This document shows positions 20,371 to 23,376 of a DNA stretch of 47,808 nt, one piece after another. How positions within the stretch are numbered: the first letter of the stretch is position 1; every line of letters begins with the position of its first letter. Source of the DNA: a virus. Position numbers and translations under genes: made by a program. The notes beneath the pieces were generated by a model. The model had not been told where the DNA came from. It worked only from the letters and a program-made list of their open reading frames with translations, and made no database searches. The stretch lies in the UHGV virus genome UHGV-1373571. One strand, written 5' to 3'.

Positions 20371-20689
20371 TGCCTGCACTCCGGTCAGGGCTCTTGGGTA
20401 GAGACGTGCTGCACGACACGTTGAAGCCCTACACGCGCAGAGTCCTGAACCAGATTGCAGGGCACAACAGGTAAGAGCATTGAGTCGATAATCGTGAAGA
20501 GTCGGCGCGCCTGGTTAGCCAGTGCTCTTTCCGTTGTGGTGAGAACAGGATCTGTAATGGGTACTCAGCCAAAGAACCTTCCTGTAGGGCGCTGAGCTAA
20601 GCAGCACGTAGCGGCCAACCACCACCTCATCCCTCTACCTTGGGACCATTACGGCTACCGCGCCGTCGCTTTTACCCTTGGTATTTCTT

Positions 20690-20821: not shown

Positions 20822-21136
20822 ATGCAACGTATGAACCCAACCGATGGTCACAATCTGCCTTACTGGTGGTCAGCCTTGCTTGGTATCTTTTCCGTCCTGA
20901 GTCTGCAGGATTATGTCTTCATCATTGGCGCCCTGATCTCTGCCTTCTTCACAATCAAGACGTATTACGCAAAGCGCAAGGAAGAGCGAGAGCGACTGGA
21001 TGAAGAGAAAAAGCGCACGCAGCTGTTGGCCAGTTATCTGGCTGATGTCTCCGCAAAGCCTGGGGGTGACCGCCCGGCTTCAGCCGAAGTGGTAACCGAG
21101 GCTTTGAAGCGGATCGCAAGTGATACACAGGGGTGA
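20822..21136 (+). CDS. holin, two TMDs (pinholin-like), with a dual-start motif
   Basis: 104 aa. MQRM dual start (Met1 and Met4 separated by an Arg). TMDs [14 protein letters not shown] and [14 protein letters not shown]. Charged C-terminus. GGAGG RBS. Confidence 0.75.
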
Positions 21137-21642
21137 TCATGACGCCATCAATGAGGAAGAAACTGATTGGCGTGATCGCCGGCGGTGGCGGAGCCATAGC
21201 CATTGCTTCTGCGCTCATCACTGGCCCAACTGGTAACGATGGTCTTGAGGGTGTGCGATACAACCCTTATCAGGATGTGGTAGGCGTCTGGACTGTCTGC
21301 TATGGCCATACTGGCAAAGACATCATGCTCGGCAAGAAGTACACCGAGGCTGAATGCCGTGCGCTGCTCAATAAAGACCTGAACACCGTCGCACGCCAGA
21401 TTAACCCGTACATCCAGAAGCCGATCCCCGAGACAATGCGCGGGGCTCTTTACTCGTTCGCCTATAACGTCGGCGCTGGCAATTTCCAGACCTCCACGCT
21501 GCTGCGCAAAATCAACCATGGTGACCAGAAAGGTGCATGTGATCAGCTGCGCCGCTGGACCTACGCCAAGGGTAAGCAGTGGAAAGGCCTGGTAACTCGT
21601 CGCGAGATTGAGCGCGAAGTTTGTCTGTGGGGGCAGAAATGA
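21133..21642 (+). CDS. SAR endolysin, T4-type lysozyme (GH24)
   Basis: 169 aa. The N-terminal signal-anchor-release segment is [23 protein letters not shown]. The catalytic E-8x-D-5x-T triad context reads [25 protein letters not shown]. Confidence 0.85.
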
Positions 21643-21742
21643 GATACGTACCGTCGGCGATATGCATGGCCGCGGCGGGATTCATTGCCGCCAGTGGACA
21701 TGATGGGTGGGGGTGGTTTCTTTTCGTTGGGGTAATTCTGCT

Positions 21743-22120
21743 ATGACTCGCCTAACCGCCATCGTAAGCGCTGTGATTATCTCCCTTATTGCCTCAATGG
21801 CATGGGCTATTCACCATTACCGCGACAACGCCATCACCTTCAAAGAGCAGCGTGATAAAGCAACGGTCAGGGCGGAAACCGCCGAGACCGTTAGCAATAG
21901 CGTGGTCACCGCAATGAACCTCATCAATGACATTTCCCGGGCAACCCAGAATGCAAAGACCGAACTTTCCCAGGCAGGTGAGAAGCGTGTTATCTACATC
22001 AGGCAGGCGCTTGAAGGCGATCAGTGTGCTAAGCAGCTTGTTCCTGCTGCCGCTGCTGACAGCTTGCGGGAATACGCGGACGGTATACGTGCCGGCTCCG
22101 GTGGTCCCGATAAGCGCTGA
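21743..22120 (+). CDS. Rz-like inner-membrane spanin
   Basis: 125 aa from the ATG at 21743 (the track ORF starts at 21707). N-terminal [23 protein letters not shown], then a periplasmic coiled coil. Rz1 is nested in the +1 frame. Confidence 0.65.
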
Positions 22121-22280
22121 CCTTACTGCAGACACACCGATCCCCGGAATGGAGGTTCCGTTCACGTGGCAGGCTAGTCTGGAGTTAAACGCGAAGCTTT
22201 ACTCTGCGCTGGGGCAGTGCAATCTGGATAAGGCGGGGATTAGAAAGATAGAGGAAGGACGCCGTAGTACTTTGCAATAA
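21927..22280 (+). CDS. Rz1-like outer-membrane lipoprotein spanin (start uncertain)
   Basis: In the +1 frame within and beyond Rz. Signal peptide with lipobox [21 protein letters not shown]. Pro-rich mature part. Confidence 0.55.
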
Positions 22281-22353
22281 TGCTGCAGATTAGGATGACG
22301 ATGGCATTAATTGTCGGGGCAAAAGGCGCCAATGAATTTAGTACTTCTAACAT
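22240..22353 (-). CDS. hypothetical 37-aa hydrophobic peptide antisense to the Rz1 3' end
   Basis: [37 protein letters not shown], preceded by a perfect AAGGAGG SD with 5-nt spacing (CAACCAAGGAGGTATACATG). One predicted TM helix. Not in the ORF track (under 60 aa). Confidence 0.45.
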   Translation of the reverse strand: MLEVLNSLAPFAPTINAIVILICSIIAKYYGVLPLSF

Positions 22354-22547
22354 GTATACCTCCTTGGTTGTGAATGGTTGTCAGTGCTTCTCTTGTGTAA
22401 CTTATGTCTCCCTGTGGCCGCTCCTACTCCGGTAACATTAAAGGCCTTAAGTGGTTATTTTTTGCTCTATACTCGCCGCTGTTGAATCCGCGGGATGTTG
22501 GACAAGCCCTTTCTAATAGTGAGTCTTAATAGCTTCTGAGCAGTTTT

Positions 22548-22565
22548 TGTCTCTTATAAGAGACA
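22548..22565. promoter_or_regulatory. 18-bp perfect palindrome TGTCTCTTATAAGAGACA flanked by GACAAG(C/T)CC(T/A)TTC direct repeats
   Basis: Seen directly in the 460-bp ORF-poor spacer between the lysis cassette and the packaging/head operon. Confidence 0.4.
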
Positions 22566-22740
22566 AGTCCATTCATGCCTGCAGGCAAAGGCGGGAACCG
22601 AAAGAGGCGTTCAATAATTTTATAAAATTCTGCAAATGATGCCTTTTTGGTGTCATTAGCAGAGTTTTATGTAAATTTACTGATGCTGCGGTGACAAAAT
22701 TACCGAGAAAGCATCAAGGCAACCCAGGGGATTATTCTGT

Positions 22741-23376
22741 ATGGCTGAAAATAACAATCGCAGACCATACCCTCCTGTCAACTTCGCTGGCGAAAACTGG
22801 CTGCCATATACCCGGCTGATCCCTGCTTTCGAAATTGGCGATTGGATTAACCAGAACATCCTCTCTGAAGAGGGGCGAATCCATAACCCTGACCATACGC
22901 ACCTGGTCGATGCTGATGTGGCATTCATGTGGGCCTCTGGCTCCTTCGCCAAAAGTGGCCGCATTGTGCTGGGTCAATGTGAGCAGGTAATGATGCGCGC
23001 CGGCGGCTGGCAGAAGTCCCGCATGGAGCAGCAGATGCATGAATGGTTCGGTCGTATACCGAAGTTCATCATCACTCTGGCTGCCGACTACTGCGAGCAA
23101 TGCAACGATCTGGAGTTCTGCGCACTGGTAGAGCATGAGCTTTATCACATCGCCCAGGCTACCGATGACTATGGCGCGCCGAAGTTCAACAAAGAGACCG
23201 GGATGCCGGTGCTCAAACTTCGCGGTCATGACGTCGAGGAGTTCGTCGGAGTGGTCCGGCGTTACGGCGCCAGCAAAGACGTGCAGGAAATGGTTGATGC
23301 GGCGAACAGGCCGGCGGAGGTTGCTCATATCGATGTTGCCAGAGCATGCGGGACGTGCATGCTGAAACTGGCTTAA
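22741..23376 (+). CDS. putative zinc metallopeptidase (HExxH motif), unknown family
   Basis: 211 aa containing LVEHELYHIAQ (HExxH). First gene after the long spacer, upstream of terS. Confidence 0.5.
   Translation: MAENNNRRPYPPVNFAGENWLPYTRLIPAFEIGDWINQNILSEEGRIHNPDHTHLVDADVAFMWASGSFAKSGRIVLGQCEQVMMRAGGWQKSRMEQQMHEWFGRIPKFIITLAADYCEQCNDLEFCALVEHELYHIAQATDDYGAPKFNKETGMPVLKLRGHDVEEFVGVVRRYGASKDVQEMVDAANRPAEVAHIDVARACGTCMLKLA

Follow-up and report, generated by a model that had tools for sequence, protein, structure and literature searches.

What is a hydrophobic peptide gene doing on the minus strand at the end of a phage lysis cassette, and what would transcribe it? The question arises in a 47,808-nt stretch of the virus genome UHGV-1373571 (hereafter the window), where the gene lies in the late region of a lambdoid prophage whose nearest relatives are temperate phages of Klebsiella and Enterobacter. 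The lysis genes comprise a holin (20822-21136), an endolysin (21133-21642), Rz (21707-22120) and, on the plus strand, an embedded Rz1 (o-spanin) frame with the lipobox LLTAC (22011-22280), which overlaps Rz and extends past its end; in relatives, the neighbours of the peptide gene are annotated as Rz1/LysC. The endolysin carries an N-terminal hydrophobic segment, which suggests an enzyme of the signal-anchor-release type. Across a gap of 460 bp, the next genes are those for a PhageMetallopep protein (22741-23376), a small terminase of the DUF2280 type and TerL.

The original prediction described a 37-aa ORF at 22240-22353 on the minus strand (stop codon included), with an AAGGAGG, a 5-nt spacing and an ATG, and all of this is confirmed. 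The Shine-Dalgarno (SD) sequence occupies 22359-22365, five nucleotides before the ATG at 22351-22353, and is unpaired in predicted folds. The single transmembrane helix that had been proposed corresponds to one strongly hydrophobic stretch of 17 residues (Kyte-Doolittle 2.30), and the overlap with the 3' end of Rz1 is borne out, covering the last 41 nt of that frame. The direction had been misjudged, however: the gene runs away from the 460-bp spacer and into Rz1, and does not point into the spacer. The gap is instead the upstream promoter and leader region of the peptide gene, and its description as "ORF-poor" was incomplete, having missed a T7-family promoter some 160 nt upstream. That promoter entirely changes the regulatory logic of the peptide gene from the one originally envisaged.

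The 37-aa minus-strand ORF is a real gene. Our comparison covered 62 loci, made up of 21 viral contigs retrieved when a conserved block from the gap served as query, 25 more retrieved with a mid-leader block, and a remainder of four E. coli prophages, eight contigs with an identical peptide, three GenBank phages and the window itself. An AAGGAG(G) Shine-Dalgarno sequence, an ATG and an open hydrophobic frame of 36-38 aa occur at the same spot in all 62 of these related prophage loci, so that the opposite-strand accessory gene suspected at the end of the lysis cassette is genuine and conserved. Among 34 unique sequences the peptide frame is open in every one, and each of the five other frames is open in only 0-6. 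The ORF is under purifying selection, with pN/pS values of 0.34 for class A, to which the window's peptide belongs, 0.59 for class B and 0.43 for class C; between the 37-aa and 36-aa subclasses of class A, pN/pS is 0.35 at a pS of 0.75, where synonymous sites are near saturation. In addition, gene callers independently called the identical peptide on 10 metagenome contigs.

Three classes of peptide are distinguished at this position. Class A peptides begin with MLEVLNSLAPF…, with subclasses beginning MLEYLKALSPY… and MLAILIALSPF…, while class B peptides begin with MSHIEIIQLIDSY… and class C peptides with MLKISLFRTIVNHKITF…. The best 17-residue hydropathy ranges from 1.6 to 2.3 across classes, and one membrane helix is feasible in each. 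The family is small, since an exhaustive HMMER search of 1.84 billion proteins returned two small relatives together with spurious repetitive proteins. No family in Pfam, PADLOC or PHROG was matched by the four peptide classes searched, and the protein models of the PADLOC defence catalogue gave 0 families at E up to 10. The cassette-bearing lambdoid prophages reside in Klebsiella and, more rarely, in E. coli and Enterobacter. Individual peptide variants occur on at least 1000, 445, 435, 298, 252 and 158 contigs; the named carriers of these variants are Klebsiella pneumoniae, K. variicola and K. quasipneumoniae only, and all copies are labelled hypothetical or uncharacterised. The cassette was found in 5 of 5426 complete E. 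coli genomes, in which PGAP left the peptide unannotated.

What lies upstream of this gene is a 23-mer, TATTAAGACTCACTATTAGAAAG, that resembles the promoters of T7-family single-subunit RNA polymerases (22509-22531, minus strand), with a predicted +1 at the A of position 22514. It emerged as a conserved block in the peptide-sense alignment of the upstream region, about 20 nt downstream of a palindrome. With matrices built from curated promoter annotations of T7, K11 and BA14, it is the top site in the window for all three (15.9, 11.5 and 19.5 bits, respectively), and it is unique, the next-best site scoring at most 7.5 bits. Throughout 195 kb of related loci, sites of at least 15 bits occur once per locus, at the same position and always directed toward the small ORF. 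The best promoter scores of the 62 loci range from 17.4 to 31.7 bits, against a maximum of 5.0 in 41 control loci; the controls were chance matches from a scan of GTDB representative genomes, and another such scan gave zero matches. From the exact score distribution, the chance expectation is 0.009-0.04 sites per window for the copy found here and 2e-6 to 2e-3 per prophage for the copies in other loci. In the BA14 record (L025, EU734171), two annotated promoter features (10827 and 18157) are shifted by one base relative to the rest, and they bring the minimum self-score of the BA14 matrix down to -3.7.

At the level of the family, the sequences have the layout of T7-group promoters, 23 bp from -17 to +6 with the conserved CACTATA core at -7 to -1 and a G or A start, and their scores reach those of genuine phage promoters. 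The copy in locus L003 scores 31.7 bits, compared with 26.0-39.2 for genuine T7 promoters, and a K11-type copy scores 28.8 bits on the K11 matrix, compared with 29.7-39.2 for genuine sites. The window's own copy falls below the genuine range, at 15.9 bits on the T7 matrix (genuine sites, at least 26) and 19.5 on the BA14 matrix (genuine median, 33). It has A at +1 and +3, is the weakest match in the family, and may be weak, decaying or less active than the others. The window form …CACTATTAG… resembles the A-initiating phi2.5 promoter of T7 and BA14-type promoters.

At least five specificity flavours of the 23-mer exist across the family, namely T7-, K11- and KP32-types and two GACTC/-12A types, and four of the five match promoters of known lytic podophages, present at 2-13 sites per genome or, in one case, at five sites on one contig. 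The T7-type, TAATGCGACTCACTATAGAGAGA, scores 31.7 bits and matches 1906 sites in 323 T7-group genomes; a sub-variant with CAGTATAG carries a change identical to that in T7's own phi1.3 promoter. The K11-type, AATTAGGGCCCACTATAGAGACC (28.8 bits on the K11 matrix), has matches in 135 Klebsiella podophage genomes, and the KP32-type, AATTAGGTAGCACTATAGGGAGG, in 386 genomes, 362 of them Klebsiella phages, with 10-13 sites each. The specificity region from -8 to -12 matches phage polymerase groups for the K11, T7, KP32 and -12A flavours, and the A-start flavour of the window is less close.

In the -12A type, (A/T)ATTAAGACTCACTATAGGAAG, the core TTAAGACTCACTA, including the -12A, is common to five promoters of one uncultured T7-like phage of about 41 kb, L102 (IMGVR_UViG_3300031372_000020). 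Its promoter consensus is TTAAGACTCACTAWAGGGAGA, and an ORF of 895 aa in this phage is 77% identical to T7 RNA polymerase. The flavour of L102, with A at -12, is also found in the window's cassette. Four E. coli copies were inspected (L105-L108), and every one has a GACTC-type promoter.

A comparison with KP32 bears on how such promoters may have been acquired. A genuine KP32 promoter (L104, isolate 194, record 20642-20674) has a 23-mer identical to that of the prophage locus L041, and the similarity extends beyond the promoter to about +16 (GGGAGACGCATCCA versus GGGAGGTGCATCCA), a hint that recombination with infecting podophages is how prophages acquire such promoters. Moreover, 12 different pairings of the five promoter types with the three peptide classes are seen among the 62 loci, indicating that promoter and payload reassort freely as modules. 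This modular reassortment, along with the absence of the cassette from otherwise related phages, fits an accessory element engaged in an arms race.

The prophages themselves do not encode the polymerase that these promoters call for. No gene for a single-subunit RNA polymerase was found by tblastn in the window or the other loci (E 0.4 or worse), where the largest ORFs encode a GDSL-lipase tail protein and an SLT-domain protein. A window scan and the upstream alignment likewise revealed no conserved sigma-70 promoter on either strand; the lone sigma-70-like site in the window (22656-22627, minus strand) lies outside the conserved module, and one such site compares with 1.7 expected by chance.

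Established directly are the build of the cassette, selection on its coding frame, the matches of the promoter in its several flavours, the lack of a polymerase gene and reassortment between modules; together they suggest the following model. Read in order, the cassette comprises a hairpin, a T7-family promoter, an unstructured leader of about 160 nt, a very strong Shine-Dalgarno sequence and a single-helix peptide of 36-38 aa. Because the prophage has neither a matching polymerase nor a conserved host-type promoter, the cassette would stay silent both in a lysogen and while the prophage itself grows lytically. The RNA polymerase of an infecting T7-like podophage, appearing after the shut-off of host transcription has begun, would then recognise the chromosomal decoy promoter and transcribe the cassette, and a surge of membrane peptide would follow from the resulting translation-ready mRNA. 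This peptide could depolarise or permeabilise the inner membrane, or act as a mistimed holin-like factor, so that, before new virions have matured, the infection would fail or lysis would come at the wrong time, and sibling lysogens would be protected. Promoter flavours would be expected to follow whichever polymerase specificities prevail among local lytic phages. A point against the model is that T7-like phages break down the DNA of their host, which limits the time available for expression of the cassette.

Transcription by the invader's polymerase, toxicity of the peptide and a defensive outcome are what we infer from sequence in this model. A toxic or exclusion role is still the most plausible one for the peptide, and we consider it probable that the cassette is a silent unit transcribed only by the polymerase of an invading T7-like phage, whose membrane peptide would abort or mistime the infection. 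Evenly balanced, in our judgement, is the broader proposition that Klebsiella prophages contain a natural promoter trap, in which a lethal or lysis-mistiming peptide is wired to a decoy promoter for T7-like RNA polymerases whose flavours track co-circulating podophages. The trap appears to be the best explanation because it combines a promoter for a foreign polymerase, an mRNA for a membrane peptide that is ready for translation, variants that mirror those of lytic phages, selection on the peptide and the reassortment of modules. The other explanations considered below would each account for less of the evidence, above all for the phage-matched flavours.

The closest parallel to the cassette in known phage biology is found in the T7 group itself, in the unit formed by the phiOR promoter and gene 19.5. 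Both have a 23-bp promoter with the invariant core CACTAT(A/T) and a phage-specific region from -8 to -12, an AAGGAGG-type Shine-Dalgarno sequence and a small hydrophobic membrane protein as product. The distance from the predicted start site to the ATG is 150-162 nt in all 62 prophage loci, and the corresponding leaders measure 160 nt in T7, 162 in BA14 and 147 in K11, so that the genomic syntax of gp19.5-type units (phage-polymerase promoter, leader of about 150-160 nt, strong Shine-Dalgarno sequence and small transmembrane protein) is present in the cassettes. Unlike the phiOR unit, the cassette lies in a lambdoid temperate phage that has no such polymerase, antisense to the phage's own operon, and its peptides have 36-38 aa rather than the 49-51 aa of gp19.5. 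The latter protein is dispensable and is predicted to be membrane-spanning, and mutations in it compensate for the loss of the T7 holin or endolysin, for which it is suspected of being a secondary holin (PMC2680503, PMC8365609).

At the protein level, class C peptides and gp19.5 have the motifs H-x-[IV]-T-[YF] and LTG-x-x-LS in common. The alignment score with gp19.5 was reached by 1 and 12 of 2000 shuffles for class C and by 28 of 2000 for the window's peptide; the result was significant for class C only. Membership of the gp19.5 family was rejected for these peptides, which gave no match to PF17553 (E up to 1), an hhalign probability of 0.3% and a marginal permutation test. Neither blastn-short nor nhmmer detected homology between the prophage leaders and the phiOR-19.5 leaders of T7, BA14 and K11. 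The cassette and the phiOR-19.5 unit are thus treated here as sharing a layout, by analogy.

This likeness opens the strongest of the competing explanations, according to which the cassette is an evolutionary relic, a phiOR-19.5-like module once acquired by recombination from the right-hand terminus of a T7-like phage genome and now without function, or else a peptide gene that modulates the prophage's own lysis. The matching layout and spacing speak for this explanation, as do the weak gp19.5-likeness of class C, the extension of the KP32-L041 similarity to +16, which is suggestive of recombinational capture, and the position next to the lysis genes. A relic is nonetheless expected to decay rather than to diversify in step, and what is seen here is an ORF under purifying selection behind a promoter that is intact in 62 of 62 loci, in five flavours that each match living phage groups and reassort with the peptide classes. 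The leader has no homology to T7-like phages, and the prophage is unable to transcribe the cassette itself. We therefore regard this explanation as unlikely.

The leader deserves separate attention. The predicted leader runs for 161 nt from +1 to the ATG (22354-22514, minus strand) and contains a conserved core of about 90 nt (22388-22483), whose blocks AACAGCGGCGAGTATAGA, TTTAATGTTACCGGAGTAGGA…GCCAC and TAAGTTACACAAGAGAA are common to all promoter types and peptide classes. No conserved uORF was found in this core, which may join the promoter and payload modules as a linker for recombination, or may serve another purpose. Folding of both strands gave no stable or conserved RNA structure (fold z = 0.23), and none of the nine pairs predicted by RNAalifold involves the Shine-Dalgarno sequence, which is left free. 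No relevant Rfam family was matched at either gathering or permissive thresholds (E up to 10).

These properties of the leader bear directly on the resemblance to type I toxins that the original prediction had pointed out. Under this explanation, the peptide would belong to a type I toxin-antitoxin (TA) system, or be a small toxin transcribed by the host, and would be kept in check by an antisense RNA or an antisense late transcript. Systems of this type (hok/sok, ldr/rdl, tisB/istR and zor/orz) likewise encode small, hydrophobic membrane peptides behind long 5' UTRs and reside on mobile elements, and hok/sok excludes T4. The peptides, at 36-38 aa, have the size and hydrophobicity of such toxins; they also have a strong Shine-Dalgarno sequence and a long 5' region, the late transcript of the prophage would be fully antisense to the peptide mRNA, and one weak sigma-70-like site lies upstream (22656-22627, minus strand).

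That site is within chance expectation and outside the conserved module, however, and the other hallmarks of a TA system are missing: no known family or sRNA antitoxin was recovered from Rfam, no conserved host or antisense promoter was detected, and the leader has no fold that occludes the Shine-Dalgarno sequence. The search for a cis-antisense RNA, whether through Rfam or a conserved antisense promoter, likewise came back empty. In contrast to type I systems, control of the cassette would be purely transcriptional and exerted by a foreign polymerase, and the five phage-matched T7-family promoter flavours would be left unexplained by a host-transcribed toxin. A type I TA system is not supported by these results, and this explanation seems decidedly improbable.

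A different use of a foreign polymerase would be piracy, in which the prophage exploits the invader, for example with the T7-type promoter as a transcription-primed replication origin of the T7 kind by which the region is amplified, or with a factor expressed from it for escape from the doomed cell. T7 promoters followed by A+T-rich DNA act as replication origins of T7 (phi1.1A/B, phiOL and phiOR), satellites such as P4 use the transcription factors of their helpers, and the cassette adjoins packaging genes. Against piracy stand the absence of a T7 concatemer-junction or packaging signal, a prophage size of about 48 kb that exceeds the capacity of the T7 capsid, transcription directed away from the packaging genes, and a membrane peptide of 36-38 aa as the only conserved and selected product, all of which make it very improbable.

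The limits of the cassette show what kind of element it is. Just upstream of the promoter lies a perfect 20-bp palindrome, TTGTCTCTTATAAGAGACAA (22547-22566, with no strand assigned), which marks the upstream edge of the module. Changes in its arms are compensatory in L036, L056 and L061 (TTGCCTC…GAGGCTAA), and in L056 and L061 pairing through G·U works only on the peptide-sense strand. The palindrome was rejected as a classical terminator for want of a U-run. Conservation upstream starts about 30 nt beyond it, whether the neighbour is the metallopeptidase or the small terminase; a PhageMetallopep-family gene separates the cassette from the small terminase in some loci and is missing from others.

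At the other end, the predicted transcript has a 3' untranslated stretch (22128-22239, minus strand) that is antisense to the 3' end of Rz1 and accompanies the module in other phages. This stretch is near-invariant even where the remainder of Rz1 is absent (L001, L002, L003, L013 and L017), and in several phages the cassette is accompanied by only the last ~125 nt of Rz1. In those phages a bidirectional hairpin terminator follows the Rz1 remnant (L001 2478-2663; L003 2475-2663); in the window, no convincing terminator, including the T7-type, was found after the ORF. In two relatives that lack the module, CobraSix and ST147-VIM1phi7.2, homology ends some 10 codons short of the Rz1 stop. By this comparison, the cassette is an accessory insert at the junction of the lysis and packaging genes. 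Rz1 remnants devoid of the lipobox carry the GenBank label 'Rz1 lytic protein' (MK714353, MK448231).

An accessory gene at this site and on this strand, absent from related phages, recalls bor, which has the equivalent position and strand in lambda, but the analogy put forward in the original prediction ends there: a bor-like moron, constitutively expressed and conferring a host-surface phenotype by lysogenic conversion, would be a lipoprotein under its own host promoter, and the cassette has no conserved host-type promoter or terminator and its peptide no signal peptide, lipobox or likeness to Bor or any named family, which renders this explanation extremely doubtful.

The proposed trap has its nearest conceptual counterpart, it would seem, in the laboratory. 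Djordjevic et al. in 1997 reportedly engineered a 'triggered suicide' defence in Lactococcus, in which a phage-inducible promoter was fused to a lethal gene. The logic is shared, in that a lethal payload is silent until the transcription machinery of an invader switches it on; the lactococcal system was man-made and relied on a phage activator together with the host polymerase, whereas the cassette is natural, exists in several flavours and would depend on the complete specificity of a foreign polymerase. The expression 'triggered suicide' also appears in reviews on dairy phages (PMC3530524, PMC5745470). Cross-activation between satellites and helpers offers a second comparison. The late promoters of P4 are activated by Ogr of P2, and PICI and PLE elements are induced by helper proteins; here too a resident mobile element is silent until a specific incoming phage supplies a transcription factor. 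Satellites respond so as to spread themselves, whereas the only product of the cassette is a tiny membrane peptide, and the factor sensed would be the polymerase itself.

No precedent for a cassette of this kind was found in the searchable full-text literature, a body of work that leaves most subscription journals outside its coverage and in which silence is absence of evidence only. As far as could be found, T7-family promoters in lambdoid prophages are undescribed, whatever their function. For phage therapy of Klebsiella pneumoniae infections, T7-like podophages of the genus Przondovirus (KP32 and K11 types) rank among the leading candidates, and the cassette sits unannotated or 'hypothetical' in thousands of Klebsiella assemblies. 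If the model is right, a 23-bp sequence could help to predict the podophage resistance of strains that carry these prophages.

More generally, the trap would be a defence without a sensor protein or an antitoxin, in which the polymerase of the invader is both trigger and executor, and an immune mechanism in which a virus is sensed by the specificity of its own transcription. It would also give a natural reason why closely related T7-like phages differ so puzzlingly in promoter specificity, and might be one of the pressures that diversify polymerase and promoter specificity in the Autographiviridae.

One copy of the peptide is divergent. The Enterobacter phage CobraSix encodes a class-C-like peptide, MLTSQGWVAILQAPITYILVWFSLSVIHYMITGVPLV (L109 2784-2897, minus strand; YP_010675428.1), at another genomic position and behind another leader. 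Upstream of it are only weak T7-family-like 23-mers of 6-11 bits, which counts against the model, and no cognate lytic phage for this promoter-like site was found in the collection searched. Relatives of the CobraSix peptide are present in genomes of Enterobacter hormaechei and E. kobei.
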